Below, piece after piece: positions 6,522 through 41,089 of a stretch of DNA of 55,246 nucleotides (positions within the stretch are counted from its first letter, which is position 1; each line of letters opens with the position of its first letter). The notes below the pieces were generated by a model. The model was not told the DNA's origin and ran no database searches. It was given only the letters and a program-made list of their open reading frames with translations. A program made the position numbers and the translations under genes. This DNA comes from a virus, in IMG/VR virus record IMGVR_UViG_3300045988_088672. One strand, 5' to 3'.

Positions 6522-6881
6522 ATGGCATATAAAGGAGCATATAAGGCTAAAGATGAGAAGTATCTGAAAGAATTGGTTTTGGGGTGTATAACTGATGAAC
6601 CTACAAGACTCAGTTCAGCTAAAATAGCAAATTACCTTGGCTTAAGTTCAAGGGACGTTCGCCTGCTAGTGCAAAAGTTAAGGGATGACGGATACCCAAT
6701 ATGTGCTACACCAGAACAAGGGTACTGGATGGCAAGAACAAGCTGGGATATGAATGATACAATGAGTAAGCTAAAATCACATATCGAAAACAGTACAGAT
6801 ACTTATAACTCGCTTGTTTATTGTCAAAATGTTTTAAAGCGAAAGGAAGGAAACAATGAATATACAGAATTGCTGGTATAA
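6522..6881 (+). CDS. Winged-helix DNA-binding protein
   Basis: SSAKIANYLGLSSRDVRLLVQKLRDDGYPI resembles an HTH_11-like wHTH. Confidence 0.45.
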   Translation: MAYKGAYKAKDEKYLKELVLGCITDEPTRLSSAKIANYLGLSSRDVRLLVQKLRDDGYPICATPEQGYWMARTSWDMNDTMSKLKSHIENSTDTYNSLVYCQNVLKRKEGNNEYTELLV

Positions 6882-9084: not shown

Positions 9085-10128
9085 TTGATAAAACTACAAG
9101 ATACAATTATACAAACCGATACACAGTCTGTCTTGGATATGCTTAAATTTGATTTGGCACAGCATGGGGTTAATAGGTTTCATATTTTTAGAAACAATGG
9201 CGAAAATGTGCAAACGAATTGTCCTTTCCACAAGAACGGACAAGAACGAAAGCCGTCTTTCGGTGTAAATGGAGAAATTGATAAATGCCATTGCTTTGCT
9301 TGTGGCTGGGCTGGTACAATAGAGGAAATGATATCCGAATTATACGGATATAAAGATGAAGGAAAGTTTGGAAAACGGTGGCTTATAAAAAGATTTAATA
9401 CAGTAGAAATTGAAACAAGACCAAATATAATGGAGGGGTTTAATGGACGAGAAATCAATAAGCAAATATATACAAGAGAACCCGGAAAAATGGAGACGGT
9501 ATTTGTCAAAGATGGAGGAACACAACGAACAAAAAGCAAAGAGATTAAAGGAGGAACTGGAACAGTTACAGGAGAAAACGGAATCACAGAAGAAGAATTA
9601 GATAAATATAGATATATTCATCCTTATATGTATGAAAGAGGATTAACCGATGAAATTATAGAAAGGTTTGATATAGGATATGACAAAGAGCGAAAAGAGA
9701 TTACTTTCCCGGTCAAAGACATTGAAGGAAGATTTTTATTCATTGCAGGAAGAAGTGTCGAACGCAAATTTTTCAGACTCCCGAAAGATACGGATAAACC
9801 GTTGTATCAAGGATATAGATTTACGGATGGAAGTTATAAATACTGTTATATCACAGAATCTTTTTTGAATTGCTTGACTTGCTGGAAATATAATAAGCCG
9901 TCTATGGCTATGATAGGCACCGGAAATCAAAAACAATATGAAATATTGAATAAGTTGCCTGTGCGTGAATATATTCTTGCATTTGACCCGGACGAAGCTG
10001 GAAGAAAAGCAATAGAAAGATTTAGAAAGAATGTACATGGAAAGATTATAAAAGAACTTGTATATGCAGATAATCGTGATATAAATGACTTGCAAGAAGA
10101 ATTTTTGAAGTGCAAAATAATTTTTTAA
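9085..10128 (+). CDS. dnaG: DnaG-type DNA primase (CHC2 zinc finger + TOPRIM)
   Basis: CPFHKNGQERKPSFGVN...CHCFACGWAG is a CHC2 finger. AFDPDEAGRKA is the TOPRIM acidic motif. TTG start. Confidence 0.85.
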   Translation: MIKLQDTIIQTDTQSVLDMLKFDLAQHGVNRFHIFRNNGENVQTNCPFHKNGQERKPSFGVNGEIDKCHCFACGWAGTIEEMISELYGYKDEGKFGKRWLIKRFNTVEIETRPNIMEGFNGREINKQIYTREPGKMETVFVKDGGTQRTKSKEIKGGTGTVTGENGITEEELDKYRYIHPYMYERGLTDEIIERFDIGYDKERKEITFPVKDIEGRFLFIAGRSVERKFFRLPKDTDKPLYQGYRFTDGSYKYCYITESFLNCLTCWKYNKPSMAMIGTGNQKQYEILNKLPVREYILAFDPDEAGRKAIERFRKNVHGKIIKELVYADNRDINDLQEEFLKCKIIF

Positions 10129-10491: not shown

Positions 10492-10601
10492 AAACAATGT
10501 GAAGCGATAACACGTAAAACACTTTATAAAATAACAAAAGGAGGATATATATGACGCGGATTAGCGTGTACGGCATAATAAATAACATATAAACGATATA
10601 T

Positions 10602-10702
10602 GAGATAGTAGTCAAGTGGTTAAGACACTCGGGGATGCAGAATAATCGTAAACATTAAAAGCGATACTCCAGGAGACATAGGTTCAAATCCTATCTATCT
10701 CA
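10602..10702 (+). tRNA. tRNA-like gene with canonical acceptor, D and T arms but a ~45-nt anticodon arm (isotype undetermined)
   Basis: Acceptor GAGATAG/CTATCTC plus discriminator A. D arm GTC-AAGTGGTTAA-GAC. T arm ATAGG-TTCAAAT-CCTAT. About 45 nt lie between position 26 and the variable loop instead of 17. Confidence 0.5.
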
Positions 10703-10879
10703 AGCGAGGTATGACGGACTACCCCAGACCCAAGTAATTAGTAAAAACAGTAAATGAACCTAGGATAGTTTGCTTAGTATGAAAATTATAGCTCCGATTA
10801 TAATCTATATTAGTGAGGTTGAGAGGTGGAATGAGGGGCTAATGACGATTAGCTAAGTAGCTAATATGGATTATATTAT

Positions 10880-10951
10880 AGCCCTATCGCCAAAAGGTAA
10901 GGCACAGGACTTTGATTCCTGCATTTGTTGGTTCGAATCCAACTAGGGCTG
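10880..10951 (+). tRNA. tRNA-Gln (anticodon TTG)
   Basis: Hand-folded cloverleaf: acceptor AGCCCTA/TAGGGCT, anticodon stem CAGGA/TCCTG, loop CTTTGAT, T arm GTTGG-TTCGAAT-CCAAC. Length 72 nt. Confidence 0.85.
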
Positions 10952-11099
10952 TGATACCCTGGCAGACAAAAAAGTAAAGGACCGGATATTCGAAATGCGT
11001 TCATTGGGGTATCATTAAGATAAACAGGAATAAAGCTGGGAATACTGTTTTCTGAAAAACTTACCATGAGGGAAGACATAGGTTCTTCCCTCGAATTAA

Positions 11100-11173
11100 G
11101 GAAGATTAGTTCAGTTGGTGAGAGCATCCGGCTCATAACCGGAAAGTCGTAGGTTCGAATCCTACATCTTCCA
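11100..11173 (+). tRNA. tRNA-Met (anticodon CAT; elongator type, or Ile2 if lysidine-modified)
   Basis: Acceptor GGAAGAT/ATCTTCC, D arm GTTC-AGTTGGTGA-GAGC, anticodon stem TCCGG/CCGGA, loop CTCATAA, T arm GTAGG-TTCGAAT-CCTAC. Confidence 0.85.
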
Positions 11174-11371
11174 CTAGGTCAAATTCTTTATTCTTTTCTT
11201 GCTGACCTATAAATCCAAGAAAAAGAACGTTATGAATGCAAAGCCGGTTTTTCGATAAAATCCTTAGAAGTTGGAAGGTAGATAGTATGTGTTAATGGGT
11301 CTATCATGGTCATTCTGTGGTTGTTTGATCAAAAACTAAAACAACTAAAACATTTAAGAAAGGAAGAAATT

Positions 11372-12539: not shown

Positions 12540-14801
12540 ATGGCATTATCATTTGCAAGACCAAAAAGCAATGATAAGAATATAATCAAGAAATCAAAAA
12601 CAGTAACAAATAGAACAAGTATTAAGGGCGGCGGAAATAATCTAGCCGCTCAGATACAATCTATCGTTGCTATTGCTAATCAAAAGTTAGCAATACACAA
12701 GGATGATTATATTCTTATCCGAGAGCCAGATCAGTTATACGAATATATGAAGGAAATGAAGCAAGTTGGGGAAGGTGCACTTGATACAGAGACCACAGGT
12801 TTAAATCCGTTACTTGTAGATATAGTTGGTGGATGTATTTATGCACCCGGACAAAAAGCTGCTTATATTCCAATAAATCATAAATCGTATATTACAGGTG
12901 TAAGAACTAAAGACCAGTTAGACGAACAGACAGTTTCAAAGATTATGAAAGAGTTTCATAAAGATATAAGATGGATTTTTCATAATGCAAAATATGATAT
13001 ACGTGTCTGTCGAAAGACACTTGGAATTGATTTCAAGCCTTATTGGGATACCATGTTGGCGGCATATTGCATTGATGAGGAAGAAAGCCACCGGTTGAAA
13101 GATTTACATTTGAAGTATTGTGATAGCAAGGATACAGAATCTTTGACATTTGATTCCTTGTTTAATGGTATAACATTTGATAATATTCCAATTTCAACTA
13201 GTTATTTATACGCCGCAGGTGACGCAATTAAGACATATGAACTTTATATGTATCAAAAAACATTACTAAATCGAAAGGTTCTATCCGGACCTTATAATGT
13301 ATTCTGGAATATTGAGATGCCACTTATTCCAGTTGTGGCGGATATGGAAGATAGAGGTGTATGCTTGGATTTTGATGTTTGTAAAAATCTACATGAAAAA
13401 TATCATAAGATTAAGGAAGAACGACAGAAACAAGCAGATGATGCTCTTAGTATGTATGCGACGGAAATTGAGAATTATAAGATGGAACATCCGAATAATA
13501 AGTTATCTGACCCGATATCTTTGCGTAGCCCGATGCAGTTAGCAGTTCTTTTTTATGATATTTTAGGATTGACAAGTCCGAATAAAAAATCACCACGAGG
13601 TACCGGTGAGGATATTCTCAAATATTTTGCACAAGGAAAGGAAAAAAACTTATGCGAAGCGATATTGGGTATAAGAAATGTTGAGAAGCTGTTGGGAACG
13701 TACATTGATAAAATGCCGAAAATTGCTTTAGCTGATGGTCGTATTCATGCAAGTTATAATCAGTATGGAGCTAAAACGGGAAGATTTTCAAGTAGTGACC
13801 CGAACTTGCAGAATATCCCGTCTCATAACAAAGAAATCCGTCATATGTTTAAGGCACAGGATGGATATGTTTTAATCGGCGGAGATTACAGTCAGCAGGA
13901 GCCACGATTGACTGCTCATTGCTCCAATGACGAAAAGATGAAAGAATCATATCATCAAGGAAAAGATATATATGCCACGATTGCTTCATTGGCATTTGAT
14001 AAGCCTTATGAAGAATGTAAAGAGTTCAGAGAAGATGGAACAGTAAATCCAGAGGGCAAGGAAAGAAGAAGTCAAGCAAAGGCTATAGTTTTAGGCGTCA
14101 CTTACGGAAAAGGTATTCCAGCAATCGGTGAAGATTTAGGAATATCAACACAAAAGGCACAAGCCGTATACGACAAAGTAATGGAAAGTTTTCCAATGCT
14201 TGAAAAGTTCATGCATGATACACAGAAAAAAGCTAGAGAACACGGCTATGTAGAAACTCCTTGGGGCAGACGTAGACATTTGAAAGATATGCAACTTGAA
14301 TCTTATATTTTTAAGTATGATGGAAAAGTGACTAACTTTGACCCATTAGCTTTTGGAAGTGATGTATCAACAGAAGTTCCGGAAAGAATAAAAAAGGAAT
14401 ATACAAAGAAACTTGATAAATGCAGATTTTACAAAGAAAGAATAAAAGTAGGAAATGATTTACAGGACCAAGGAATATCAGTAACTTATAACACAAATAA
14501 AATAGCACAAGCGGAAAGGCAATGTGTAAATAGTGTTATTCAAGGTGGGGCGGCGGATATGGCTAAGCTTGCAATGATACACATTAACAATGATGAAATT
14601 ATGAAAGAGTTAGATTTTCATTTGCTTATATGTGTGCATGATGAATTTATAGGGGAATGCCCGATTGAGAACGCAAAGAAAGCAAGTGAAAGATTAGCGC
14701 AACTAATGATAGATGCCCCAAAAGGAAAGATTGATATTCCTATGAAAGTGGATTGTGAAATAACTAGAAACTGGTATGGAGAAAGCGTGGAAATAAATTA
14801 A
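12540..14801 (+). CDS. polA: Family-A DNA polymerase (PolI-like) with 3'-5' exonuclease domain
   Basis: ALDTETTGL (Exo I), YAAGDA (Exo III), RFSSSDPNLQNIP (motif A region), RRSQAKAIVLGVTYG (motif B) and CVHDEF (motif C). Confidence 0.9.
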   Translation: MALSFARPKSNDKNIIKKSKTVTNRTSIKGGGNNLAAQIQSIVAIANQKLAIHKDDYILIREPDQLYEYMKEMKQVGEGALDTETTGLNPLLVDIVGGCIYAPGQKAAYIPINHKSYITGVRTKDQLDEQTVSKIMKEFHKDIRWIFHNAKYDIRVCRKTLGIDFKPYWDTMLAAYCIDEEESHRLKDLHLKYCDSKDTESLTFDSLFNGITFDNIPISTSYLYAAGDAIKTYELYMYQKTLLNRKVLSGPYNVFWNIEMPLIPVVADMEDRGVCLDFDVCKNLHEKYHKIKEERQKQADDALSMYATEIENYKMEHPNNKLSDPISLRSPMQLAVLFYDILGLTSPNKKSPRGTGEDILKYFAQGKEKNLCEAILGIRNVEKLLGTYIDKMPKIALADGRIHASYNQYGAKTGRFSSSDPNLQNIPSHNKEIRHMFKAQDGYVLIGGDYSQQEPRLTAHCSNDEKMKESYHQGKDIYATIASLAFDKPYEECKEFREDGTVNPEGKERRSQAKAIVLGVTYGKGIPAIGEDLGISTQKAQAVYDKVMESFPMLEKFMHDTQKKAREHGYVETPWGRRRHLKDMQLESYIFKYDGKVTNFDPLAFGSDVSTEVPERIKKEYTKKLDKCRFYKERIKVGNDLQDQGISVTYNTNKIAQAERQCVNSVIQGGAADMAKLAMIHINNDEIMKELDFHLLICVHDEFIGECPIENAKKASERLAQLMIDAPKGKIDIPMKVDCEITRNWYGESVEIN

Positions 14802-15402: not shown

Positions 15403-15816
15403 GTGGCACTTATAAAAGTGAATAAAAAAGATTATATGGAGGGAGACACTAAATATTCGAGAGCTATATCAATACCTCAATATGAAGTAAAGGGAGACAG
15501 ACCGTTCATAGAAGAACTATATTCAAATGAAAAAGTAATTAAATTATTAGACCATATCAAAAAGTCCGGTGTATCAGAGAATGAAAAGAAGTTTTTGACA
15601 ATAGCAGCGTATAGACATTATGTATTTAACTATAGTAGAATAGCAGAGTATTATGCTAGTGCTAGCAAAGAAATGCAGGAACTTATGGAGGAATCAGCAC
15701 TTGTGATTATTGATATTGATGATGCTATAAAAAATGGATATGTTAAATATAATAAGCGTATTCAGCAGATTATTGAAGATTCTAAAAAAGTAAAGGAGGA
15801 ATCTAATGAGAAGTGA
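15403..15816 (+). CDS. Hypothetical protein
   Basis: ORF track, 137 aa. GTG start lies 8 nt after AAAGGAG. Confidence 0.55.
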   Translation: MALIKVNKKDYMEGDTKYSRAISIPQYEVKGDRPFIEELYSNEKVIKLLDHIKKSGVSENEKKFLTIAAYRHYVFNYSRIAEYYASASKEMQELMEESALVIIDIDDAIKNGYVKYNKRIQQIIEDSKKVKEESNEK

Positions 15817-16657
15817 TTTTGCATGTTTTATCCTTTGTCATGGTAGACCAAATAATACACCCACATTTAGCACTTTAAGGAAGTACGGCTACACTGGTGC
15901 TATATATATAATCTGTGATGACGAGGATAAAACATTGCAGGAATATAGGAATATATATGGCGAGGACATTGTAAAGGTCTTTAATAAATTAGATGTTCTA
16001 CAAAAATTTGATACTATGGACTCTAGTGAAAATCGTGGATGCGCAGTGTACGCTAGAAATGCGTGTTTTGATATTGCTGAGGAGTTAGGAATAAGATATT
16101 TTTGTGAGTTAGATGATGATTATTTAGACATAACCATACGAAAGCCGGTTGAAGACAAATTACCGGTATTTAATCACAAAAATCTTGACCTTATTTTTGA
16201 AACATACATTGATTTTATGAATACAAACCCAAATATATATTCAGTAGCATTTGCACAAGCTGGAGATTATATTGGTGGTTATGCTTGTCAACTAATGAGT
16301 AATGGGTATAAACGTAAGTGTATGAATAGTTGGATTTGTGATGTTTCAAAAAGATTCATATTTAATGGTAGAATGAATGATGACGTTAATACCTATACAT
16401 TGGAGGGTTCACGCGGAAAAGTCTATATAACATTGCCATATGTATGTGTTAATCAGCCGGAGACTCAACAGGTTAGTGGCGGTATGACAGATATGTATAA
16501 AGGGGAAGGGACATACATTAAATCTTTTTATACTGTGATGTGCTGTCCAAGTTTTGCTTGTATTCATATTATGGGTTGGCACAATTATAGAATACACCAT
16601 AAAATAAATTGGGAACATGCTTGCCCTAAAATTATTTCTGATAAATGGAAAAAATAA
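15806..16657 (+). CDS. Putative GT-A-like glycosyltransferase (DxD motif)
   Basis: An N-terminal beta-alpha start (FILCHGRPNN) and a CELDDDY (DxD) motif resemble nucleotide-sugar transferases. Motif-level inference only. Confidence 0.35.
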   Translation: MRSDFACFILCHGRPNNTPTFSTLRKYGYTGAIYIICDDEDKTLQEYRNIYGEDIVKVFNKLDVLQKFDTMDSSENRGCAVYARNACFDIAEELGIRYFCELDDDYLDITIRKPVEDKLPVFNHKNLDLIFETYIDFMNTNPNIYSVAFAQAGDYIGGYACQLMSNGYKRKCMNSWICDVSKRFIFNGRMNDDVNTYTLEGSRGKVYITLPYVCVNQPETQQVSGGMTDMYKGEGTYIKSFYTVMCCPSFACIHIMGWHNYRIHHKINWEHACPKIISDKWKK

Positions 16658-16710: not shown

Positions 16711-18102
16711 TTGAATTATGATGAATTTCTAAAAACAAAAATAGAGCAATTCAATCCTTGTGGATTTGATTATGAACCTTCAAACAAAAATTTATTTGAT
16801 TTTCAAAGAGCTATTGTGAAGATAGCACTTAAAAGAGGAAAATCTGCATTGTTTCTTGATACAGGACTTGGAAAAACTATATGTCAGTTGTCATGGGCAG
16901 ATGAAGTGTATAAGCATACTGGAAAAAATGTACTTATACTTGCCCCGCTTGCGGTATCCGTTCAGACAAAAAGAGAGGGAGAAAAGTTCGGCGTTGAGGT
17001 AAATATTTGTAGAACGCAGGAGGATGTAAAAGACGGAATAAACATTACAAATTATGAAATGTTAGAACATTTTAATGCTGAAGAATTTATAGGAATTGTA
17101 CTTGATGAAAGTTCAATACTTAAATCATATAGTGGAAAAATGAAAACTGGCATAATAGAAAAGTTTGAGAATGTTCCTTATAAGCTATCCTGCACTGCCA
17201 CCCCATCTCCTAATGATACAATGGAGTTATTAAATCAAGCCGAATTTTTGAATGTTCTAAAATCGCATGAGGCATTGGCTGTATGGTTTGTAACTGACCA
17301 AAACTCAATGGGAGCATATAGATTAAAGCATCATGCAGAGGATGACTTTTGGACTTGGGTATCAAGCTGGGCAGTTCTTTTAAAAAAGCCGTCAGATTTA
17401 GGGTTTAATGATGATGGTTACGATTTGCCGCCTTTGTATGAGAAAGATGTTATAATTCCTGTATCATTAAAAAGTGAAGAAAAGGGAAGATTGTTGCGAA
17501 AAATTGAAATGTCAGCAACAAACTTCTATAAAGAAAAGAAACTAATTACAGATGAAAGAATAAAAAAGATTGCTGAAATAGCAAATAGCACAGATGAGCA
17601 GTATCTAATTTGGTGTTATACAAACGAAGAAAGTTCATTGTTACACAAAGCTATTGAAGGAAGTGTTGAGGTTAAGGGTTCAGATAAGCCAGAACACAAA
17701 GAGAAATCAAGTCTTGATTTTAAATCGGGGAAAATAAGAGTGCTTATATCAAAGGTATCTATTTTTGGTTTTGGTTTGAATTTTCAGAATTGCACAAAAT
17801 GTATTTTTTGCGGGTTAGATTATTCATATGAAAAATACTACCAAGCAGTAAGAAGATTGTACAGATTTGGACAGACAAAGGAAGTTACAGTATATAGAGT
17901 TTTGGGTTCAACAGAAAGTCATATACTTAATATATTGACTGACAAATACAGAAAGCAGGAGAATATGCAGGAGCATATGAACAAATGCACAAATAAACTA
18001 ATACTTGATGAAATGAATGGCAATAGAAAATTTAAGCTGAGCGAACAAAATACGGAAAATATAAGTTTTCCGAGTTGGTTAAAGGAGGAAACATATGAAT
18101 AG
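16711..18102 (+). CDS. DEAD/DEAH-box (SF2, SNF2-related) helicase
   Basis: LDTGLGKT (motif I), VLDESS (motif II), CTATPSPN (motif III) and a C-terminal helicase domain with YYQAVRRLYRFGQ (motif VI). TTG start follows AAAGGAGAAAG. Confidence 0.8.
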   Translation: MNYDEFLKTKIEQFNPCGFDYEPSNKNLFDFQRAIVKIALKRGKSALFLDTGLGKTICQLSWADEVYKHTGKNVLILAPLAVSVQTKREGEKFGVEVNICRTQEDVKDGINITNYEMLEHFNAEEFIGIVLDESSILKSYSGKMKTGIIEKFENVPYKLSCTATPSPNDTMELLNQAEFLNVLKSHEALAVWFVTDQNSMGAYRLKHHAEDDFWTWVSSWAVLLKKPSDLGFNDDGYDLPPLYEKDVIIPVSLKSEEKGRLLRKIEMSATNFYKEKKLITDERIKKIAEIANSTDEQYLIWCYTNEESSLLHKAIEGSVEVKGSDKPEHKEKSSLDFKSGKIRVLISKVSIFGFGLNFQNCTKCIFCGLDYSYEKYYQAVRRLYRFGQTKEVTVYRVLGSTESHILNILTDKYRKQENMQEHMNKCTNKLILDEMNGNRKFKLSEQNTENISFPSWLKEETYE

Positions 18103-19009
18103 TGTAGTTAAAAATGATTATGCAATTTATAATGGAGATTGTGTAGAGTTGATGAAAACAATGCCTGATGAAAGTATCGACTTTTCTATATTTTCGCCGC
18201 CATTCGTAAATTTATATATTTATAGTGATGATTTACGAGATATGGGTAATTGTAAAGACAGTGAAGAGTTCTTTCAGCAAATGCAGTTTATGACGGAACA
18301 TTTGCACAGAATATTAAGGACAGGCAGGCTTGTAGCAGTTCATTGCAAAAATACAGTGAAATATAAAAATCGTGACGGAGTTGCCGGTTGGTATGATTTT
18401 AGAGGAGATTTAATAAGGCATTTTGAAAAGAATGGCTTTCAGTATCATTCAGAGGTTTGCATATGGACCGACCCTGTAAGAGAAATGCAGAAAACAAAGA
18501 CACAAAGATTATTATATTGTCAGTTACAGAGAGATGCAAGTCATACTGGAATTGGTATGCCTGAGTATCTTGTAATCTTCAGAAAGTGGGGTGATGAAAG
18601 TAAAGAAATCCCTATTAAGCATTATAAGAATGAAAAGCAGATGGAAGAAGATAATGGAGAGCCATTACAGTTAGTTGACCTTGAAACATGGCAGAGATAT
18701 GCAAGTCCTGTTTGGTTCGATATTAAACGTACAGATGTATTAAGCGGAAAGATGGCAAGAGACGAAAAAGATGAAAAGCATATCTGTCCACTACAGTTGG
18801 AGGTTATTCAAAGAGCGGTTGAGCTATGGACTAATCCTGGAGAGGTAGTATTTACCCCATTCATGGGGATAGGTTCAGAAGTATATCAAAGTTTGAAACT
18901 TCATAGAAAAGCGATAGGTGTTGAATTAAAGGAAAGCTATTTTAATCAAGCGGCTGAAAATTGCAAAATGGCAATATCAGATAGAGTAGAAAGAAAGAGA
19001 TTATTTTAA
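18095..19009 (+). CDS. N4/N6 DNA methyltransferase (beta-class, N6_N4_Mtase type)
   Basis: The catalytic SPPF motif (FSPPFVNLY) is near the N-terminus and the AdoMet motif FTPFMGIGSE near the C-terminus. The start overlaps the helicase stop. Confidence 0.85.
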   Translation: MNSVVKNDYAIYNGDCVELMKTMPDESIDFSIFSPPFVNLYIYSDDLRDMGNCKDSEEFFQQMQFMTEHLHRILRTGRLVAVHCKNTVKYKNRDGVAGWYDFRGDLIRHFEKNGFQYHSEVCIWTDPVREMQKTKTQRLLYCQLQRDASHTGIGMPEYLVIFRKWGDESKEIPIKHYKNEKQMEEDNGEPLQLVDLETWQRYASPVWFDIKRTDVLSGKMARDEKDEKHICPLQLEVIQRAVELWTNPGEVVFTPFMGIGSEVYQSLKLHRKAIGVELKESYFNQAAENCKMAISDRVERKRLF

Positions 19010-29623: not shown

Positions 29624-29902
29624 ATGAGACTTATTGACTCAGACAGACTACTTGCTTATTTGAAAGAAGAAAATGTCGTACCAATTTGTATTCAAAATTT
29701 AACAAAGAAAAACAAACAAATTATAAAGTTTGAAAATATGATATATGAGCAACCTACTGCCTATGATATTGATGGTGTTGTAGAGCAGTTGAATACGGAC
29801 TCTTCTATAGAACTGTATGGAAGTGGCAATAGCAATAATTATCTTATTCCCGTTGAAAGGGCAATCAACATAGTAAAGGAAGGAGGTATTATAAATGAGT
29901 AA
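29624..29902 (+). CDS. Hypothetical protein
   Basis: ORF track 29477..29902. ATG 29624 is preferred because it follows AAGGAGGA. Confidence 0.55.
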   Translation: MRLIDSDRLLAYLKEENVVPICIQNLTKKNKQIIKFENMIYEQPTAYDIDGVVEQLNTDSSIELYGSGNSNNYLIPVERAINIVKEGGIINE

Positions 29903-30914
29903 TCTTGATTTAATTATAAAAGATTTGAATAAGAAAATGAAGGTAGGAAATATTCAGTTAGGCGTAGATTTCCAAGAAGTACAAAAGATTCCTTTTTCAT
30001 CGTGCAGATTAAATTATATGACATATGGTGGAATCCCAGTTGGAAGAATTGCAGAATTTTATGGGGCAGATGGAAGTGGAAAGACAACTACTGCTATTGA
30101 TGTAGCATGGAATGCACAAAGAATGTTTCCAGATAAAAAAGTGCTATTTGTAGATATTGAACATACTTTTGATTATTGCTGGTCTACTAAACTAGGATTG
30201 AATTGTGATGATATAATCTATCTTGACCCTGATAGCATGGGAGCAGAGGAAGTTTTTAATATGATGATTGAGCTTATAGATAGTGGAGAAATAAGCCTAT
30301 GTATATTAGATTCAATCGGTGCTATGGTATCTATGCAAGCAAACGAAAAACAGATAGGCGAAAGAACATATGGCGGAGTAAGTATGGCATTAACTGAATT
30401 TAGCAAGAAAATAACTCCAGTTCTTGCAAGAACACAAACTGCTTTTATAGGAATAAATCAAGTCCGAGATGATATGAATAGCATGTATGGCGGAACAACT
30501 ACGACAGGCGGAAGAGCATGGCGGCATAGTTGCAGTACAAGGCTTGAGTTTAGAAAAGGAAATTATATTGATGATAAGGATAATAAACTTTCGAGAGCTT
30601 GTGAGAATCCTGCCGGAAATATAGTCAATGTGGCACTAGTGAAATCTAAAGTATGTAGACCGGACAGAAAAGTAGGCTTCTACACATTAAAATATCTTGA
30701 AGGAATTGACTATGTATCGGATGCAGTTGATGTAGCTATCAAAATGGGATTAGTTATGCAGGGAGGAGCATGGTTTTCTTTAGTTGATATTGAAACAGGA
30801 GAGATTCTTAATAAATTCCAAGGAAAATCAAAGTTAGTTGACTATCTAAAGGAAAATGATAACTATACAGATTTTTACTCAAAATTGGATAAATTATTAA
30901 ACGAGCAATCTTAA
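29895..30914 (+). CDS. recA: RecA-family recombinase
   Basis: GGIPVGRIAEFYGADGSGKTTTAI (Walker A context as in RecA), ILDSIGAM (Walker B) and FIGINQVR. Confidence 0.8.
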   Translation: MSNLDLIIKDLNKKMKVGNIQLGVDFQEVQKIPFSSCRLNYMTYGGIPVGRIAEFYGADGSGKTTTAIDVAWNAQRMFPDKKVLFVDIEHTFDYCWSTKLGLNCDDIIYLDPDSMGAEEVFNMMIELIDSGEISLCILDSIGAMVSMQANEKQIGERTYGGVSMALTEFSKKITPVLARTQTAFIGINQVRDDMNSMYGGTTTTGGRAWRHSCSTRLEFRKGNYIDDKDNKLSRACENPAGNIVNVALVKSKVCRPDRKVGFYTLKYLEGIDYVSDAVDVAIKMGLVMQGGAWFSLVDIETGEILNKFQGKSKLVDYLKENDNYTDFYSKLDKLLNEQS

Positions 30915-30924
30915 TTATCAACAA

Positions 30925-30956
30925 GTTATCCACATTAAATTGTGGATAACTTTTTT
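30925..30956 (+). terminator. Rho-independent terminator whose stem is a pair of inverted perfect DnaA boxes
   Basis: GTTATCCACA-TTAAAT-TGTGGATAAC followed by T6. TTATCCACA is the DnaA-box consensus. TTATCAACA lies at 30915-30923. Confidence 0.8.
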
Positions 30957-30977: not shown

Positions 30978-31006
30978 TTGACATTTCTATTTTTATGTGT
31001 TACAAT
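30978..31006 (+). promoter_or_regulatory. Early-class promoter cassette copy 8
   Basis: Exact TTGACATTTCTATTTTTATGTGTTACAAT. The leader through the ATGACA start matches 10184-10224. Confidence 0.75.
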
Positions 31007-31050: not shown

Positions 31051-31569
31051 ATGACAAAGAAAGAAGCAATGCAAAAACAGTATAAAGAGTGGGAGGAAAG
31101 TATCAATAATATGTCAGCAGAGGAAATGAAAGCTGATTTATTGAATAATTGTGAGCTGTCTTTTACTGATAGTCGTTTATTAAAAAGAAAGATGAAGGAT
31201 GGGTTTCTTCGTAAAATGTACAAAGCCTATCACCCATTTGTAAACCCAGCTGAGGAGGGTTATAACTTTATCATGCGTAAGTATGAGGGGTTATTAGATA
31301 CCCTGTATAGAGTATTTGATGTGGAAGGCGCTGTACAGCATGAGGTTACAGAAGCTTTCCAATACTCCAAGGAGGACTTGGCGGATCTGAATAAGGAACG
31401 TAATCAATATAGATCCGATAGATCTAAGGAAATTCTGGAAGAATATAAAGCTAAATATTCGCATGATGATGTGCTGGAATATTTAGAAGATGACCCGTCC
31501 ATTAGTTATGGGCACAAATTTGATATCGAAAAAGTATTTTCGGATCTTAACAAGTGGGCAGAAGAGTAA
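31051..31569 (+). CDS. Hypothetical acidic protein
   Basis: ORF track, 172 aa. Confidence 0.6.
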   Translation: MTKKEAMQKQYKEWEESINNMSAEEMKADLLNNCELSFTDSRLLKRKMKDGFLRKMYKAYHPFVNPAEEGYNFIMRKYEGLLDTLYRVFDVEGAVQHEVTEAFQYSKEDLADLNKERNQYRSDRSKEILEEYKAKYSHDDVLEYLEDDPSISYGHKFDIEKVFSDLNKWAEE

Positions 31570-31584
31570 AGGAGGAAAATACAT

Positions 31585-32106
31585 ATGTTAGATGAACAGC
31601 AGAAAAAAATTGTAGCAGAAAATCATAACTTAATATACTATGCTTTGAGCAAGTATAAGTTGAATCCGGAAGAGTATTATGACATACTCGCTATTGGCTT
31701 ATGCAAAGCCGCAATTGCCTTTGACCCGGAAAGGTCAAAGTTCGCAACATACGCAATGAAGGTCATGTATAATGAATTTTTAATGCAGGTCAAGCATGAA
31801 AATGCTAATAAAAGAGAAGCAAATAAGAATGTGCTTTCTTTAAATTACAGACTAAATGATCATAAAAATGAAGGTCATATATGTGAATTTGGAGAGTTAT
31901 TGACAGATGGGAGAGAACCATTCATGGATGTGGTTCATATGTATCTTCCGGATATACTAACAAAGAAAGAGCTTTTAGTATGCCAGCTTTCATATGATGG
32001 TTATGACCAGACACAAATCGGAGAAAAGATGGGTGTGACACAGTCTTATGTTAGCAGATTATTAAAGAAAGCAAGAATTAAATTAGAAAAGGAGATGGTA
32101 TTTTGA
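31585..32106 (+). CDS. Sigma-70-family RNA polymerase sigma factor (regions 2 and 4)
   Basis: Region 2-like NHNLIYYALSKY...ILAIGLCKAAIAFDPERSKFATYA. Region 4 HTH is QTQIGEKMGVTQSYVSRLLKKA. Confidence 0.8.
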   Translation: MLDEQQKKIVAENHNLIYYALSKYKLNPEEYYDILAIGLCKAAIAFDPERSKFATYAMKVMYNEFLMQVKHENANKREANKNVLSLNYRLNDHKNEGHICEFGELLTDGREPFMDVVHMYLPDILTKKELLVCQLSYDGYDQTQIGEKMGVTQSYVSRLLKKARIKLEKEMVF

Positions 32107-32468
32107 ATACAGCTAAAAATTTTAGAAAAATATTGAGAGGGGACGTATATTGGGTTGATTTAAGTCCTCTAAGTGATGTAGTAAAACATATGGAAGGCGG
32201 TGTTAGACCAGTGGTCGTTGTAAGCAACTCGTATAATAACAAATACTGCGACCTTTTAAACGTCATCCCTATGACATCAAAAAAAGATAAATTGCCACAG
32301 CATCAGTCAGTTACGGTAATGCACAAGAAAGACCCAAGAAAGAGTTATTTGCTCCCGGAAAATACGTGCGTTATAAATAAGAATCAATTGCGGAATTTTA
32401 TCTGTCATTTGGACCCACGTTCAATAAGCAACATGAACCGGGCAATAATGACACAGTTCGAGTTATAA
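32103..32468 (+). CDS. mazF: MazF/PemK (EndoA-like) endoribonuclease toxin
   Basis: RGDVYWVDLSP...GGVRPVVVVSN...VIPMTS...KLPQH closely parallels B. subtilis EndoA ([28 protein letters not shown]...). TTG start overlaps the sigma stop by 4 nt. Confidence 0.8.
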   Translation: MNTAKNFRKILRGDVYWVDLSPLSDVVKHMEGGVRPVVVVSNSYNNKYCDLLNVIPMTSKKDKLPQHQSVTVMHKKDPRKSYLLPENTCVINKNQLRNFICHLDPRSISNMNRAIMTQFEL

Positions 32469-33623: not shown

Positions 33624-33651
33624 TTTACAAATTTAAAAATTGTGTTATAAT
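33624..33651 (+). promoter_or_regulatory. Late-class promoter (CTTTACAAAT...TTGTGTTATAATAAAA) ahead of the packaging operon
   Basis: TTTACA 33624-33629, 16-bp spacer, TATAAT 33646-33651 with TGT. Its flanks are shared with the promoter at 39278. Confidence 0.6.
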
Positions 33652-36449: not shown

Positions 36450-38036
36450 ATGATTAAAAAATTATTGAATTTAATCTACGAAGCAATTGGTAAAATGATT
36501 GGGTATAAATCAATAACTGATGCTTTTGAAATTGATGATACTGGAATATCTGACGAAATGTCAAATGCGCTGGATGTGTGGAAATCCATGTATAAAGACG
36601 AAAGCCCTTGGCTTGACGATATAAAAGGTGTATACTCTTTAGGATTGCCTAAGCAGATATGTCAATCTTTGAAACAACAGACACTTTCTGAAATGGAAAC
36701 ATCTATTACAGAACCCGGAGTTGAAGATGGTATAGAACAGGATAAAGATGATGCCATTGATACAAGGGCTAAATTTCTGAATGATATTTACCAAAAAAGG
36801 CTTATTAAAAATCTGCCACAATCTTTTGAAAAAGCCTTGGCTCTTGGTGGAATGGTTATAAAGCCGTACATGAGCAATGGGCAGTTATATCTTGATTTTA
36901 ACCAGCAAGGAGAGTTCTATCCTATAGCTTTTGATGATGATGGAAATATCATTGATGTTGCATTTTTTGACCAATTTACCGCTGGAAAATATGTCTATAC
37001 AAAAGTTGAAAGACAGACATTCTCTTTTGATAAGAAAATGGTTGTTGTGGAAAATAAGGCATTCAAAGCACAGTTACGCACACCGGACGATGAAGTAGAA
37101 CAGGAACTCGGACAAGAGATACCATTATCATCCATTGACCGATGGAATGGAATTAGTGAAGAACCGGTAACTATTGAGAACACAGAAAAGCCGTTGTATG
37201 GATATTTCAAAGTCCCACTTGCCAATAATGTTGACATGAAATCTCCCCTTGGAATTTCAATTTTTAGCCCTGCAACAAAACTAATTAGAAAAGCCGATGA
37301 ACAGTTCAGCCGCCTTGACTGGGAATATAAGGGAGGACAATTAGCCATTGATGTTGACCCGACAGCCGTAACCTATAGTGAGGGTTATTATGGAACAAAA
37401 ACTAACTTGGATGACTTACAAGACAGATTATATCGTAGATTAGATACAGGTTCTGACGAGACATATCACGAATGGGCTCCGTCTTTGCGGGATGCAAATT
37501 ATATAAATGGGCTCAACGTGTATACAAATAAAATAGAAGATATGATAGGATTAGCAAGAGGGACATTGTCTCAAGTAGAATTAGACGCAAGAACAGCTAC
37601 TGAGATTAAGCTCGTTAAGCAAAGAACTTATATCACGGTTTCCGATTTACAGAAAGCTTTAGACCAATGTCTAATGGATGTGGTATATGCTATGAATGTG
37701 TTTACTGAATTATATAATCTTGCCCCTGCCGGAGATTATGACACAAACATAGATTGGAAAGACAGCATTTTGACGGATACAGATACAGAACTTGAGCATA
37801 AGATGACCCTTCAAACTGCCGGTATTTTAAGCAAGGCTGAGGTTCGTGCTTGGTACACAGGGGAATCTGTAGAAGCCGCACAATTAGAGATTGATAAAAT
37901 GCAGGAGCAAGCACAGCAGAACATGATGAATGATTTGTTTAATTCTACTGATACCAGTGACAATTCTTTAGAGTCTAATCCTACAGATAAACAAGATATG
38001 TCAAATCAGAACAATCAATCTAATAATGAGGAGTGA
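36450..38036 (+). CDS. Portal protein (SPP1 gp6-like)
   Basis: Size (~528 aa), position after the terminase, and an acidic Q/N/D/E-rich C-terminal tail. ATG 36450 follows GAAAGGAG. Confidence 0.7.
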   Translation: MIKKLLNLIYEAIGKMIGYKSITDAFEIDDTGISDEMSNALDVWKSMYKDESPWLDDIKGVYSLGLPKQICQSLKQQTLSEMETSITEPGVEDGIEQDKDDAIDTRAKFLNDIYQKRLIKNLPQSFEKALALGGMVIKPYMSNGQLYLDFNQQGEFYPIAFDDDGNIIDVAFFDQFTAGKYVYTKVERQTFSFDKKMVVVENKAFKAQLRTPDDEVEQELGQEIPLSSIDRWNGISEEPVTIENTEKPLYGYFKVPLANNVDMKSPLGISIFSPATKLIRKADEQFSRLDWEYKGGQLAIDVDPTAVTYSEGYYGTKTNLDDLQDRLYRRLDTGSDETYHEWAPSLRDANYINGLNVYTNKIEDMIGLARGTLSQVELDARTATEIKLVKQRTYITVSDLQKALDQCLMDVVYAMNVFTELYNLAPAGDYDTNIDWKDSILTDTDTELEHKMTLQTAGILSKAEVRAWYTGESVEAAQLEIDKMQEQAQQNMMNDLFNSTDTSDNSLESNPTDKQDMSNQNNQSNNEE

Positions 38037-38042
38037 TTTTAG

Positions 38043-39146
38043 ATGGCTTTATCAAAGGATGAATTAACGAACATTGCTTTTAGAATTGCTGACAGATTCG
38101 AAAAAGTCAATATCTTTTATCTTTCCAAAATGGCGGAACAGATAAAAGATATTGGTAAATTGGATAAGGACAATATGCACCGGTTAGAACAAATGGCTAA
38201 AATGGGTAATAACATTGAAGAAATAAATCTATACCTCTCAAAGCAATCCGGACTAGCGTTACAAGATATTTATAAACTTTATGATAAAAGTGCTGGTGAG
38301 ATATACAAGGATGTTGCTTATATGTATAAATATAATGGGATCAATCAGCCTGAATTTTCTAAAAATATAGCAGTACAAAATTATATCCGTTCTGTACGAA
38401 ATTTGACACTAGGAACATTCGCCAATATGGCGAATACAACGAACATTGCTAAGGATTATAAGGATGCCATTGATTTAGCCATAGATACAGTAGCAACCGG
38501 AATGGATGGATATCAAGATGTTTTAGAAAGGCTTGTTCTTGATAAGGCTACACAAGGGGCAAGAGTTCAATATTCAAGTGGACGAACACGAAGATTGGAT
38601 AGTGCGGCTAGGATGAACATATTAGAAGGAGTTCGTCAAGTCAACTATGGCGTACGATTAGAAGCAGGCAGACAATATGGGGCAGATGGGGTTGAAATAG
38701 ACGCACATGGATTGTGCGCAGAAGACCATCTTCCATATCAAGGAAGACAATACAGTCTTTCAAAGTATCATTCAATCAATGAAAGTTTAGAAAGACATTT
38801 TGGAACGTGCAACTGCCAACATGGTATATCCTATATAGTTCTCGGCATATCACCCCCTTCATACGATGATAAAGAATTGAAAAGAATAAAAGATTACTCA
38901 ACAGAAAAAATAAAAGTGGGGGATAAGGAAATAACAAGATACGAAGCCAGTCAAGTAATTAGAAATCTTGAAACCAAGATGAGATACAAGCAGGAACAGA
39001 TTATAGCTTTACAAAAGGCTGGGAAAGACGCCGAAGAACAGAAAAAACAGTTAAAGAGATTGAAGCAATCTTATGGTTACACATCGAAACAAGCAAATCT
39101 TCGTAGACAATGGAACAGAGCAAAGGTTCCGGGTTACGATTTATAG
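38043..39146 (+). CDS. Minor head / head-morphogenesis protein (SPP1 gp7 / Mu F-like)
   Basis: Position after the portal. VEIDAHGLCAEDHLPYQGRQYS resembles the Phage_Mu_F core. Confidence 0.65.
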   Translation: MALSKDELTNIAFRIADRFEKVNIFYLSKMAEQIKDIGKLDKDNMHRLEQMAKMGNNIEEINLYLSKQSGLALQDIYKLYDKSAGEIYKDVAYMYKYNGINQPEFSKNIAVQNYIRSVRNLTLGTFANMANTTNIAKDYKDAIDLAIDTVATGMDGYQDVLERLVLDKATQGARVQYSSGRTRRLDSAARMNILEGVRQVNYGVRLEAGRQYGADGVEIDAHGLCAEDHLPYQGRQYSLSKYHSINESLERHFGTCNCQHGISYIVLGISPPSYDDKELKRIKDYSTEKIKVGDKEITRYEASQVIRNLETKMRYKQEQIIALQKAGKDAEEQKKQLKRLKQSYGYTSKQANLRRQWNRAKVPGYDL

Positions 39147-39156
39147 TTATCAACAA

Positions 39157-39191
39157 GTTATTCACAGAAAATTGTGAATAACTTTTGTTTT
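39157..39191 (+). terminator. Rho-independent terminator built from inverted DnaA-box-like repeats
   Basis: GTTATTCACA-GAAAAT-TGTGAATAAC followed by TTTTGTTTT. It is a paralogue of the terminator at 30925. Confidence 0.75.
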
Positions 39192-39277
39192 GTACATGAG
39201 TTATTCACAATTTTAACATTTTGATTGTGTATAACTTTACTTATCAACAAGTTATCAACAATTTTTTCAAAAAACAC

Positions 39278-39306
39278 TTTACAAATGTTGATAAGTTGTG
39301 TATAAT
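39278..39306 (+). promoter_or_regulatory. Late-class promoter ahead of the scaffold/capsid operon
   Basis: TTTACA 39278-39283, 17-bp spacer, TATAAT 39301-39306. The spacer contains two DnaA-box-like 9-mers. Confidence 0.6.
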
Positions 39307-39381
39307 AAAAAATGTAAATAATCCAAAACCCGGAAAGCGGGTTAAAAACATCATTTTAGATTATAAAGGAGTGCAGAAAAC

Positions 39382-40023
39382 ATGAAGAATATCTATGAGA
39401 TTCTTAAATCTTTCGAAATTACAGTTCCGGAAGACAAGAAGGAAGATTTTGATAAGGTTTTAAATGAAAATTATAAGACTATATCAGAAGTAACTAAAAT
39501 CCAAGGCAAGCTGGAAAAGGCTGAAGGGGAAAGAGATACTTATAAGACTAAGTATGACATGGATATCAAGCAGAGGGATGCTGATATCAAAGACCTTCAA
39601 GGAAAGCTGAAAGACGCGGGAACAGACACCACAAAGTTATCTGACTTGCAGAAAGAACTTTCAGCATTGCAGGATACTTACAATACAGAAAAGTCCAATT
39701 ACGAAAAGCAATTGAGTCAGCAAGCTTATGAGTTTGCCATTAAAGAAAAAGTGGCAGATTTGAAGTTTTCCTCAAACTCAGCAAAGAAAGCTTTTATAGC
39801 AGATGCGCTGAAAGAGGAACTGAAAATGAAGGATGGGCAGTTGCAAGGATTTGACGACTTCCTGGAATCTTATAAGAAAACGGATGCAGATGCATTCCTA
39901 AAAGAGGATACAGAACATTCTGGTGAGGATGAACCGCCTAAACCGCAGTTTAGTGGAAAATCATCCGGTACAGAAACACAGCTGAAAGGCGACACGGAAA
40001 AGCCTTCAGTTACATTTTGGTAA
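39382..40023 (+). CDS. Scaffolding protein (GP20-like coiled coil)
   Basis: A 213-aa charged coiled coil, located immediately upstream of the major capsid gene. Confidence 0.7.
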   Translation: MKNIYEILKSFEITVPEDKKEDFDKVLNENYKTISEVTKIQGKLEKAEGERDTYKTKYDMDIKQRDADIKDLQGKLKDAGTDTTKLSDLQKELSALQDTYNTEKSNYEKQLSQQAYEFAIKEKVADLKFSSNSAKKAFIADALKEELKMKDGQLQGFDDFLESYKKTDADAFLKEDTEHSGEDEPPKPQFSGKSSGTETQLKGDTEKPSVTFW

Positions 40024-40040
40024 AAAGGAGAGATTAAAAA

Positions 40041-40916
40041 ATGGCAAGACCAGAAACAACAAGACTTGATTCTTTGAACGTATTGCTTGATGGTAGTGAA
40101 TCCGGAAAGATGCTCTTGAAAGAAGCATATGATGGCGTTATTGAGAACGTCCAGAAAGGCACAGTATCATCTAAAATCAAGAACACAGATTTGAGTGGTG
40201 ATCCAACAGCCGGCACAGTAGAAGCTAAACGATTTGTTAATGCAAGTTCACAGCCCTATGGAACTGCTCGTACAGCGACTAAAGGAACGGCAGTCAAAGG
40301 AAAGACTGTTACTGTTCCTATTAACGTTGACAGAGAGTTTGTAGAAGAGATTGCAGAAAAAGATATCCGCTTGCTTGGCGTAGACGGATTGGTTGCTAAA
40401 CGTTCCGCGAACCATGCACAAAGAATGGTAGCAGAACTTGATACCGCATTTTTTGCAGAAGGTAAAAACTCCGGAACACAGTTCAAACCGGCAAAAGCTG
40501 TGACAGATATTAAGGATATTGTTGAGTCCGCAATTCTTCAGCTTGAGAAATTGAAAAATAACTATATTGACGGACTGGATCGCTCAATGCTTTCCATCAC
40601 ATTTGACCCGGATACTTATTCGGCAATGAGAATGTACCTCGATACTGTAGTTAATACAAATGTTGACACGACATCCGAAGAGTTCGTGATGTATCATGGA
40701 GTTAAGTGTTATAATTCGAACAGATTGCCATCTGGCGTAAAATTCGAAATCATGATGGATGAATCAATTGCGCAGCCAATTACATCTAAGCCATACTCTG
40801 CTGAACGTATTCCGTTGAGTGAGGATGTAGCCGTAGAAATGTTCTTCTACTATGGCACAAAAGCAGTAACGCCTGATACCATTTTCTGGTATGACGGAAC
40901 GCACGCTGAAGTCTAA
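40041..40916 (+). CDS. Major capsid protein
   Basis: Position after the scaffold, 291 aa, and a strong SD. Assigned by synteny. Confidence 0.65.
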   Translation: MARPETTRLDSLNVLLDGSESGKMLLKEAYDGVIENVQKGTVSSKIKNTDLSGDPTAGTVEAKRFVNASSQPYGTARTATKGTAVKGKTVTVPINVDREFVEEIAEKDIRLLGVDGLVAKRSANHAQRMVAELDTAFFAEGKNSGTQFKPAKAVTDIKDIVESAILQLEKLKNNYIDGLDRSMLSITFDPDTYSAMRMYLDTVVNTNVDTTSEEFVMYHGVKCYNSNRLPSGVKFEIMMDESIAQPITSKPYSAERIPLSEDVAVEMFFYYGTKAVTPDTIFWYDGTHAEV

Positions 40917-40936
40917 TTGGATAAGGAGGATATATA

Positions 40937-41089
40937 ATGGACATTAAAATGCCTGATGGCGCAGTTTTAGTCACAGAAAATCCCGAAGTCATTGATTCCT
41001 ATATCAACATGATGGGCGGAGAAGAAGTGACAAAAAAGCAAACAAAAAAGTCAGCAACTAAGGTTGCCTCCGCCTCAGAAGCTGAGTAG
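40937..41089 (+). CDS. Hypothetical small protein (50 aa, not in ORF track)
   Basis: Hand translation gives MDIKMPDGAVLVTENPEVIDSYINMMGGEEVTKKQTKKSATKVASASEAE*. SD AAGGAGGA is upstream. Confidence 0.5.
   Translation: MDIKMPDGAVLVTENPEVIDSYINMMGGEEVTKKQTKKSATKVASASEAE

Follow-up and report, generated by a model that had tools for sequence, protein, structure and literature searches.

Nearly every bacterium has DnaA, a protein that mirrors the status of replication and growth. Why a bacteriophage should carry a dense array of DnaA-box-like 9-mers between two of its head genes is the question raised by positions 39147-39321 of the IMG/VR virus record IMGVR_UViG_3300045988_088672. The window, meaning the whole stretch of DNA that was analyzed, comprises 55,246 bases with a guanine plus cytosine (GC) content of 34.6%, carries essentially every gene on the plus strand and appears to be the genome of a tailed phage, complete or almost so. 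A preliminary description had listed nine such 9-mers within 160 base pairs (bp), had placed them between head-morphogenesis and scaffold genes and had offered a second host-DnaA-dependent origin, a DnaA sink or DnaA-gated late transcription as explanations. All nine were recovered, and the flanking genes encode a minor head protein (PHROG 581) and a head scaffolding protein (PHROG 194). A tenth box, a second cluster elsewhere in the window and the conservation of the sites in related phages are additions to that description, and together they point to predicted DnaA sites that may gate transcription of the capsid operon.

Box clusters at two terminator-promoter junctions

The main cluster spans the end of one operon and the promoter of the next. 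It consists of the following elements:

39147..39166, plus strand: tandem box pair TTATCAACA-AG-TTATTCACA with an 11-bp period (boxes at 39147 and 39158; 11.4 and 11.7 bits)
39155..39194, plus strand: intrinsic terminator found by a consensus scan, a 12-13 bp hairpin of two inverted boxes followed by a T-rich tail
39173..39181, minus strand: inverted box TTATTCACA, pairing with the box at 39158
39201..39234: inverted box pair, TTATTCACA (plus strand, 39201-39209) and TTATACACA (minus strand, 39226-39234), 16 bp between them
39241..39260, plus strand: tandem pair TTATCAACA-AG-TTATCAACA (boxes at 39241 and 39252), just 5' of the -35 hexamer
39278..39306, plus strand: sigma-A-type promoter TTTACA-17-TATAAT of the scaffold/major capsid operon, 11/12 consensus matches
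39286..39305, minus strand: tandem pair, TTATCAACA at 39286-39294 and TTATACACA at 39297-39305
39313..39321, minus strand: tenth, degenerate box TTATTTACA, at about +1 to +9

Five of the nine boxes match TTATNCACA (TTATTCACA three times, TTATACACA twice), and the other four read TTATCAACA, one mismatch from TTATCCACA. The leading tandem pair begins one base past the stop codon of the minor head gene, and a C at position 5 of its second box would make it the exact bacterial 20-mer TTATCAACAAGTTATCCACA. Every box of the main cluster falls in an inverted pair in this phage; the pair at 39201..39234 forms an imperfect hairpin of -11.8 kcal/mol.

Scores were obtained with a matrix built from the nucleotide counts of 150 boxes bound in vitro by Bacillus subtilis DnaA (PMC4447404, Table S3). 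In this set 100 boxes have C and 45 have A at position 6; position 5 admits all four bases, with 78 C, 43 T, 16 A and 13 G (PMC4447404). Since the matrix accepts A at position 6 and tolerates variation at position 5, TTATCAACA, TTATTCACA and TTATACACA are ordinary Firmicute DnaA boxes. The nine boxes reach 10.3-11.7 of 13.5 bits on this B. subtilis scale. Scoring of the genome against random controls, as the preliminary description had proposed, revealed a box density far above chance. The highest count per 175 bp by matrix is 9, compared with at most 4 in simulated genomes, and the highest count per 160 bp with up to one mismatch is likewise 9, compared with at most 3 in 600 simulated genomes (Markov orders 1 and 3). 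Shuffles of the 160-bp segment itself contained 0.05 boxes on average and never more than 2. Across the whole window 37 sites lie within one mismatch of TTATCCACA, against 21-27 expected, and 10 of the 24 sites with at least 11 bits are inside the two clusters; the decisive figure for clustering is the local density rather than the window total.

Two inverted boxes had been described as the stem of a terminator, and this holds: the hairpin occupies 39155-39184 and is followed by the T-rich tail TTGTTTTG. The terminator at 39155..39194 closes the terS-terL-portal-minor head operon, and its RNA folds with -15.2 kcal/mol (z = -3.3; 0/200 shuffles fold as well). A scan of 38900-39600 against Rfam returned nothing near any gathering score. 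The promoter at 39278-39306 also stands as first described, as does one of the two boxes assigned to its spacer; the other spans the spacer and the -10 hexamer. Relative to a transcription start that probably lies near 39313, the boxes are found at -166 to -132 (the terminator), -112 to -79, -72 to -53, -27 to -19, -16 to -8 and about +1 to +9. The -35 hexamer is flanked by two tandem pairs facing one another. There is thus, at 39278-39306, a recognisable promoter with a box overlapping its core elements, as looked for in a DnaA-repressed promoter, and the boxes at -27 to -8 and +1 occupy the classical repressor position. The promoter is invariant across all ten aligned phages and shares CTTTACAAAT...TTGTGTwATAAT with a late promoter at 33624, which precedes the small terminase gene and carries no boxes.

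The 5' leader of the scaffold mRNA contains a further hairpin, AACCCG-GAAAG-CGGGTT at 39327-39343. It is invariant across phages with 54-91% identity of the flanking proteins, apart from a compensatory G-C to A-T change in one close relative (L006), and may be a stabilising or processing element.

A scan of the whole window uncovered a second cluster with the same construction, located upstream of one copy of a repeated promoter:

30915..30949: second cluster, TTATCAACA-AG-TTATCCACA, six-base loop TTAAAT, TGTGGATAA
30923..30956, plus strand: intrinsic terminator, stem AAGTTATCCACA/TGTGGATAACTT followed by T6
30978..31006, plus strand: early/middle promoter TTGACA-17-TACAAT with TG, eighth and last copy
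818, 3551, 10160, 14834, 16665, 20236, 25707 and 30992: copies of the promoter cassette, given as the position of TTTATGTGTTACAAT

The three boxes score 11.4, 13.5 and 13.5 bits, and TGTGGATAA runs on into CTTTTTT. The cluster starts right behind the stop codon of the RecA/UvsX-like gene and precedes an operon with the phage sigma factor. In both 30915-30949 and 39147-39181 a tandem pair with an 11-bp period and an inverted box jointly make a terminator stem, and at both operon ends (30923-30956 and 39155-39194) a stable stem-loop is followed by a T/U tract. The RNA of the second terminator folds with -18.4 kcal/mol (z = -7.0), and no shuffle folds as well. The boxes sit 29-63 bp 5' of the -35 hexamer of the promoter at 30978..31006, which drives ORF (open reading frame) 31051, a variable gene, the sigma-factor gene at 31585-32106 and a MazF-like gene. 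This promoter belongs to an early/middle cassette, TTGACA-17-TGTTACAAT, present in eight near-identical copies of about 75 bp (aaaaacctaTTGACAtttctatttttatgTGtTACAATataatcaaagttaagaaa...aggagg), and none of the other seven copies is accompanied by boxes. Because seven of the eight early-promoter copies and the late promoter at 33624 lack them, the boxes add regulation and are not a component of the promoters.

By analogy with the repeated promoter/stem-loop cassettes of T4-like phages, the cassette copies may serve as recombination points. The first gene behind the promoter at 30978..31006 (31051-31569; same position in L054-L088) differs from phage to phage, and the terminator and promoter ahead of it are conserved; 31051-31569 looks like a hypervariable cargo slot.

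Conservation and the probable binding protein

The main cluster lies 3' of the minor head gene in nine close relatives with 81-91% protein identity (L001-L009) and in three distant ones with 54-57% identity of the flanking proteins (L016-L018), and the tandem at 39147..39166 is conserved in both groups. It is absent from all more distant loci and from a sister clade of about 61% identity (L010-L014, L020); in that clade the gene order is unchanged, the junction lacks a terminator and the promoter is a different one, without boxes. Column statistics were computed for the seven closest phages, taking the seven informative positions of each box as its core and positions 5 and 6 as degenerate. Variable columns number 1/63 in the box cores, 11/18 at positions 5 and 6 and 15/78 in the spacers (Fisher p = 9e-4 for core versus spacer and 3e-8 for core versus positions 5/6), a pattern that matches what the DnaA information profile would predict.

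Individual sites change within these limits. The pair 39158/39173 is compensatory, reading TTATCCACA/TGTGGATAA in relatives and TTATTCACA/TGTGAATAA here, and the boxes of 39201..39234 turn over in relatives while staying within the set tolerated by DnaA. L001-L007 have a third box, TTATCCACA, beside the tandem at 39241..39260, and the position of the tenth box reads TTATCTACA in them. In the three distant relatives the boxes are rearranged: the terminator is built from two direct boxes and one inverted box, another two or three, all pointing the same way, come after it, and four boxes in one orientation have no partners. The box in the promoter spacer is the perfect consensus TGTGGATAA in these phages, at the exact position of the TGTTGATAA of the window. 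As this spacer box is retained despite the rearrangement, it is the identity and position of the boxes that persist and not their hairpin potential. Three weak one-mismatch sites at 8420-8476 of L018, a 'cluster' within a gene, were dismissed as chance.

About 25 relatives retain the second cluster, some of them with a gene inserted ahead of it. Changes in its stem either compensate each other (TTATCAACA...TGTTGATAA) or allow wobble pairing, and the terminator hairpin is therefore also under selection.

The kinship of these sites with bacterial ones was followed with the exact 20-mer TTATCAACAAGTTATCCACA, searched in 185,579 species genomes. It occurs in at least 120 bacterial loci, against about 1-3 expected by chance, and the matches come from many phyla with 24-65% GC, from Treponema to Planctomycetota, lineages of the candidate phyla radiation and Bacillota. 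Among the matches listed, most sit in box arrays with an 11-bp period, and 38/120 have a DnaA protein signature inside the 8-kb locus. In a Lachnobacterium genome (L143) the 20-mer is found in the dnaA-dnaN spacer, both genes being confirmed by Pfam. Lachnospiraceae origins mix TTATCCACA with TTATCAACA and have the same 5' AAG flank as the phage boxes, and the tandem-plus-inverted triplet recurs in several bacterial genomes, for example upstream of dnaA in L170. Often situated next to dnaA, the 20-mer would seem to be a two-box module that chromosomal origins have conserved very widely.

The same 20-mer is present in 54 viral contigs (L219-L272), about 37 of which, with 31-58% GC, are unrelated to this phage. 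In the unrelated contigs it is embedded in arrays of 3-7 boxes, examples of which are:

L231, 6370-6480: viral box array
L233, 10725-10760: viral box array
L260, 1885-1985: viral box array
L261, 1200-1500: viral box array

A large terminase gene lies at most two ORFs away in at least 9 of 36 non-redundant unrelated viral loci from several lineages, against about 7% expected (binomial p about 9e-4, not corrected for relatedness). These neighbors were assigned by PHROG scans; a transitive phmmer search gave only 4. Portal or head genes flank the 20-mer in other unrelated contigs, and L231 has a promoter-like TTTACA-16-TATTAT between its portal gene and the following one, with a triple array on either side. 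DnaA-box arrays may be recurrent at packaging/head junctions of phages, and DnaA is the only obvious DNA-binding protein common to these bacterial and viral systems.

Candidates encoded by the phage itself fit less well. DnaA domain IV was not found in the approximately 65 phage ORFs scanned. The iterons of the phage initiator are unrelated in sequence to DnaA boxes, and phages with a different initiator type retain the DnaA-box sites. As iterons co-vary with the initiator and the boxes are kept across initiator types, the phage initiator is not the protein that binds the boxes.

The known features of Spo0A, CRP/Rex-type and Fur-type boxes were also compared. The phage motif varies exactly where the Spo0A box is invariant (positions 5 and 6), and the CRP/Rex-type and Fur-type boxes disagree with it in half-site orientation or in the positions that have to be conserved; all three were rejected. 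Comparative evidence strongly supports the preliminary assignment of the 9-mers as predicted DnaA boxes, and we regard them with good confidence as true DnaA-binding sites.

Proposed gating of the capsid operon and competing explanations

How might such sites act? The anatomy suggests that the two clusters are arrays of host-DnaA sites built into two terminator-promoter junctions. The ten boxes of 39147-39321 make up a terminator stem, bracket the -35 hexamer and occupy the spacer, the -10 region and the start site, and DnaA bound cooperatively to them would occlude the promoter. On the hairpin-encoding DNA it could form a roadblock for RNA polymerase and so strengthen termination. As long as free DnaA is plentiful, the main morphogenetic (scaffold/capsid) operon would be held down, and the terminase-portal operon, with its similar promoter lacking boxes, would be unaffected. 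Replication from the iteron origin would then add about 13 strong boxes per genome copy, titrate DnaA and release the capsid operon, giving a replication-coupled late switch without a special regulator of the phage's own. At 30915-30949 the three-box copy might work in the same way, as an insulator that closes the replication/recombination module before the sigma-factor operon. DnaA-box complexes reportedly block transcription in Escherichia coli, a result ascribed to Schaefer and Messer, 1988. A DnaA-dependent attenuator has been proposed as well (PMC10989985).

DnaA-gated late transcription had already been among the suggestions of the preliminary description. Its fit to the conserved anatomy is the best of the explanations considered, the spacer box keeping its position in phages with only 54-57% identity of the flanking protein; the regulation itself, namely DnaA binding, its sign and relief by titration, is what we infer from that anatomy. 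The composite model, in which repression of the scaffold/capsid promoter and a strengthened terminator are both due to host DnaA until accumulating phage DNA titrates it, is put forward tentatively, its likelihood being judged somewhat short of even. A number of points weigh against it. None of the nine boxes of the main cluster is a perfect consensus. The box-free sister clade implies that the boxes are dispensable for this type of phage. All boxes here are inverted-paired, and selection on hairpins contributes to some of the conservation. The sign of the regulation is read from geometry alone, and if the phage degrades host DNA, free DnaA would go up and repression would deepen. Finally, one of some 20 small unassigned phage ORFs could encode a protein of DnaA-like specificity. 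A wider proposition, that the phage gauges its own copy number via host DnaA and that arrays at packaging/head junctions have evolved independently across phyla, is regarded as rather doubtful; the terminase- and portal-adjacent arrays of unrelated contigs are likened to the CtrA-site signature of Alphaproteobacteria phages.

A second, host-DnaA-dependent origin inside the structural module would account for a box density equal to that of chromosomal origins and for a region of 21% GC, a value shared by other intergenic regions of this 34.6% GC genome; AT-rich 13-mer or 27-mer repeats were not seen in it. Tandem box pairs, moreover, are the platform of the basal unwinding system (PMC8287927). 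The phage, however, brings a complete replication module of its own (HTH_36 initiator with iterons, DnaC-like loader, DnaB, primase and family A polymerase), the likely origin of which is the following:

5944-6041: phage iterons TGTCAAAAAATTTGACAGG (GGTGTCAAAAAATTTGACAGG), 23-bp period, three to four copies, inside the HTH_36 initiator gene

An AT-rich stretch follows these iterons, and the loader and helicase genes adjoin. Relatives whose initiator has diverged carry GGTATACAACAGAGTTGTACAGG in place of the iterons (L273-L285 compared), from which it follows that initiator protein and iterons co-vary. At 5877, some 60 bp away from the iterons, a perfect TTATCCACA was considered as an accessory origin box and set aside as chance, being coding and not conserved. 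The replication module and its iteron origin occupy 5.7-14.8 kb, and the genes adjoining the main cluster are head genes, not dnaA/dnaN. By the published DnaA-trio rule (PMC8287927), neither strand of 39100-39400 contains a run of at least four [CT]T[AT] triplets, and a lenient rule of three NTN triplets matched only T tracts or neighboring boxes, no box having a GAT-type trio next to it. The GC skew shows a monotonic rise over the whole genome and does not inflect at 39 kb. The boxes coincide, furthermore, with a terminator stem and a core promoter, and the sister clade is altogether box-free. Given the phage's own iteron origin, the absence of canonical DnaA-trios and the featureless skew at the cluster, the second origin proposed in the preliminary description is disfavored and appears most improbable.

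DnaA can also be withheld from the host by a sink, as it is by datA of E. coli. In a phage, arrays of this kind would soak up DnaA and block host initiation, and their overlap with terminator and promoter would reflect economy of space. The 13 strong boxes per genome in two dense clusters would suit this purpose, as would the position of the second cluster, too far 5' of its promoter for occlusion. In B. subtilis, deletion of six DnaA-box clusters outside the origin leads to early initiation (PMC3245932), and this too speaks for a sink. A sink, on the other hand, has no need for a fixed box inside a promoter spacer across diverged phages or for a restriction of boxes to two transcription junctions, and competition for the replication machinery of the host is limited because polymerase, helicase, primase and clamp loader are all encoded by the phage. 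As the sole explanation it is unlikely; a sink effect is compatible with DnaA gating of the capsid operon, partly contained in it, and could be a side effect of the same sites. Equally unlikely is an operator array for a protein other than DnaA, either a phage regulator or another host factor, that times middle/late transcription with a specificity resembling TTATNNACA. The phage does encode several unassigned small proteins and helix-turn-helix proteins at 3941-4258 and 6522-6881, the boxes are confined to one subclade and absent from its sister clade, and A stands at position 6 in 49% of phage boxes against 26% in host-type origins. It would nevertheless have to be a protein for which motif, variants, AAG flank, 11-bp tandem and exact 20-mer are those of chromosomal origins across phyla, and the occurrence of boxes in both orientations with spacings of 2, 3, 6 and 16 bp indicates that single 9-mers are read rather than a dimer of fixed spacing. 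A Spo0A box would need positions 5 and 6 conserved, DnaA domain IV is absent from the ORFs scanned, and the phage initiator is excluded by the co-variation with its iterons.

By analogy with the injection stop signal of T5, the sites might instead anchor phage DNA to membrane-associated DnaA at injection or packaging. T5-like phages have eight conserved DnaA or DnaA-like boxes off the origin, paired in inverted repeats and including TTATCAACA and TTATTAACA (bioRxiv 10.1101/866236), a precedent for paired boxes away from an origin, and the frequent proximity of the tandem 20-mer to the large terminase (within two ORFs in at least 9/36 unrelated viral loci) would agree with such a role. Here, however, the small terminase gene has one cluster 3 kb upstream and the other 5 kb downstream, with neither of them at the gene itself, the exact overlap with terminator and core promoter is left unexplained, and the T5 proposal is itself made on sequence grounds; anchoring is considered very unlikely. 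One may finally do without any protein and regard the 9-mers as hairpin arms in RNA or DNA, from terminators or cruciforms, that spread through the region by duplication. Inverted pairing does hold for 9/9 boxes, the first pair makes a good terminator and changes in one arm of a stem are balanced in the other, but independent hairpins need not share one 9-mer family, the three distant relatives have four unpaired boxes in the same orientation, conservation tracks the DnaA information profile instead of base pairing, and the other terminators of the phage use unrelated GC-containing stems. This explanation, too, is judged highly improbable.

Genome setting and comparison with known systems

The principal genes are ordered as follows:

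1758-3473: SNF2 helicase
3941-4258: helix-turn-helix protein HTH_23 (match below the Pfam cutoff)
5674-6507: HTH_36 initiator-like protein
6522-6881: HTH_11 protein
6856-7518: DnaC/IstB-like loader
7518-8789: DnaB helicase
9085-10128: primase
12540-14801: family A polymerase
29895-30914: RecA/UvsX-like protein
31585-32106: sigma factor
38043-39146: minor head protein (PHROG 581)
39382-40023: head scaffolding protein (PHROG 194)
40041-40916: presumed major capsid protein of 291 amino acids, directly 3' of the scaffolding gene

Clamp-loader subunits are encoded between the family A polymerase and the RecA/UvsX-like protein. The genes for the small and large terminase subunits and the portal follow the sigma factor and precede the minor head gene; tail genes and an endolysin-like protein lie 3' of the presumed capsid gene, for which no PHROG or Pfam family was matched at the thresholds used. 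Among the ORFs scanned, about 20 small ones being without family assignment, neither an integrase nor any other gene of lysogeny turned up, and the phage appears virulent. A search of 38000-41000 for near-identical DNA in cultured phages returned no match, and the phage is known from metagenome contigs only, IMG/VR holding dozens of related contigs of 50-57 kb. The portals of Clostridioides, Ruminococcus gnavus and Faecalibacterium phages are distant relatives of its own, and the host is probably a low-GC gut Firmicute, one of the Clostridia.

Several further features accompany these modules. A PemK/MazF-like toxin gene (32103-32468; 9e-18) lies directly 3' of the sigma-factor gene at 31585-32106 and overlaps it. 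A TET-associated glycosyltransferase (Pfam TAGT, 5.7e-31) and a DNA methylase, encoded at 15806-16657 and 18095-19009, suggest hypermodified cytosines in the phage DNA; neither GC nor CG dinucleotides are present in the DnaA boxes. An 814-bp region without ORFs (10492-11305) contains tRNA-Gln (10879-10952) and tRNA-Met (11100-11174). Upstream of the initiator gene, a region of 205 bp harbors two long nested inverted repeats, which may constitute a regulatory RNA or an operator:

5508-5524/5597-5613: inverted repeat of 17 nucleotides, perfect
5547-5577/5625-5655: inverted repeat of 31 nucleotides, 90%

If DnaA gates the capsid operon as outlined above, virion production would be coupled to DNA supply or host physiology without a dedicated regulator. 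Replication-coupled late transcription is known from T4 and, more recently, Mu, and the present arrangement would be a new route to it. The arrays beside terminase and portal genes in unrelated contigs might reflect a general, overlooked control by a host factor, or a role in packaging or injection. Searches of the literature gave no direct precedent for DnaA-gated late promoters in phages and no description of a phage structural operon whose promoter bears a DnaA-box array.

Related solutions exist all the same. The Bacillus phage phi29, likewise a virulent phage of a Firmicute, is said to carry sites of a host master regulator, Spo0A, that restrain its own promoters (attributed to Meijer et al., EMBO J 2005). 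Protein and motif differ, as the Spo0A box TGTCGAA needs the two positions that vary freely here. With chromosomal origins and dnaA promoter regions, the clusters share the identical 20-mer, the 11-bp period, the mixture of TTATCCACA and TTATCAACA and the tandem-plus-inverted triplets, but no DnaA-trios or GC cluster follow the tandem, dnaA and dnaN are not nearby and the phage has its own iteron origin.

Among bacterial regulatory sites, the non-origin clusters and DnaA-regulated promoters of B. subtilis (dnaA, sda, ywlC, yydA and others) are likewise intergenic arrays near TTATNCACA, with box variants and scores in the same range. DnaA-ATP binds these arrays cooperatively, and they act on nearby promoters and on DnaA availability (PMC4447404, PMC3245932). 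In the phage, by contrast, the array lies on a genome of rising copy number, is fused to an intrinsic terminator and covers a capsid promoter. The injection-stop boxes of T5-like phages (bioRxiv 10.1101/866236) resemble the present ones as conserved pairs that include TTATCAACA, in inverted repeats, off the origin of a virulent phage. Their pairs are spaced by 3 bp, lie in a large untranslated terminal repeat and have a proposed role in DNA injection, whereas the spacing here is 2 bp and the boxes lie on a terminator and a core promoter.

A further parallel is offered by the dense clusters of CtrA sites in Alphaproteobacteria phages ('lytic deferment', PMC9437464), in which sites for a host cell-cycle regulator are likewise localised in promoters. 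This signature has evolved in several lineages of lytic phages, and binding and regulation have been shown experimentally (PMC9437464). The present case differs in that the predicted regulator is DnaA, the host belongs to another phylum and the sites lie in the structural module and double as a terminator stem.

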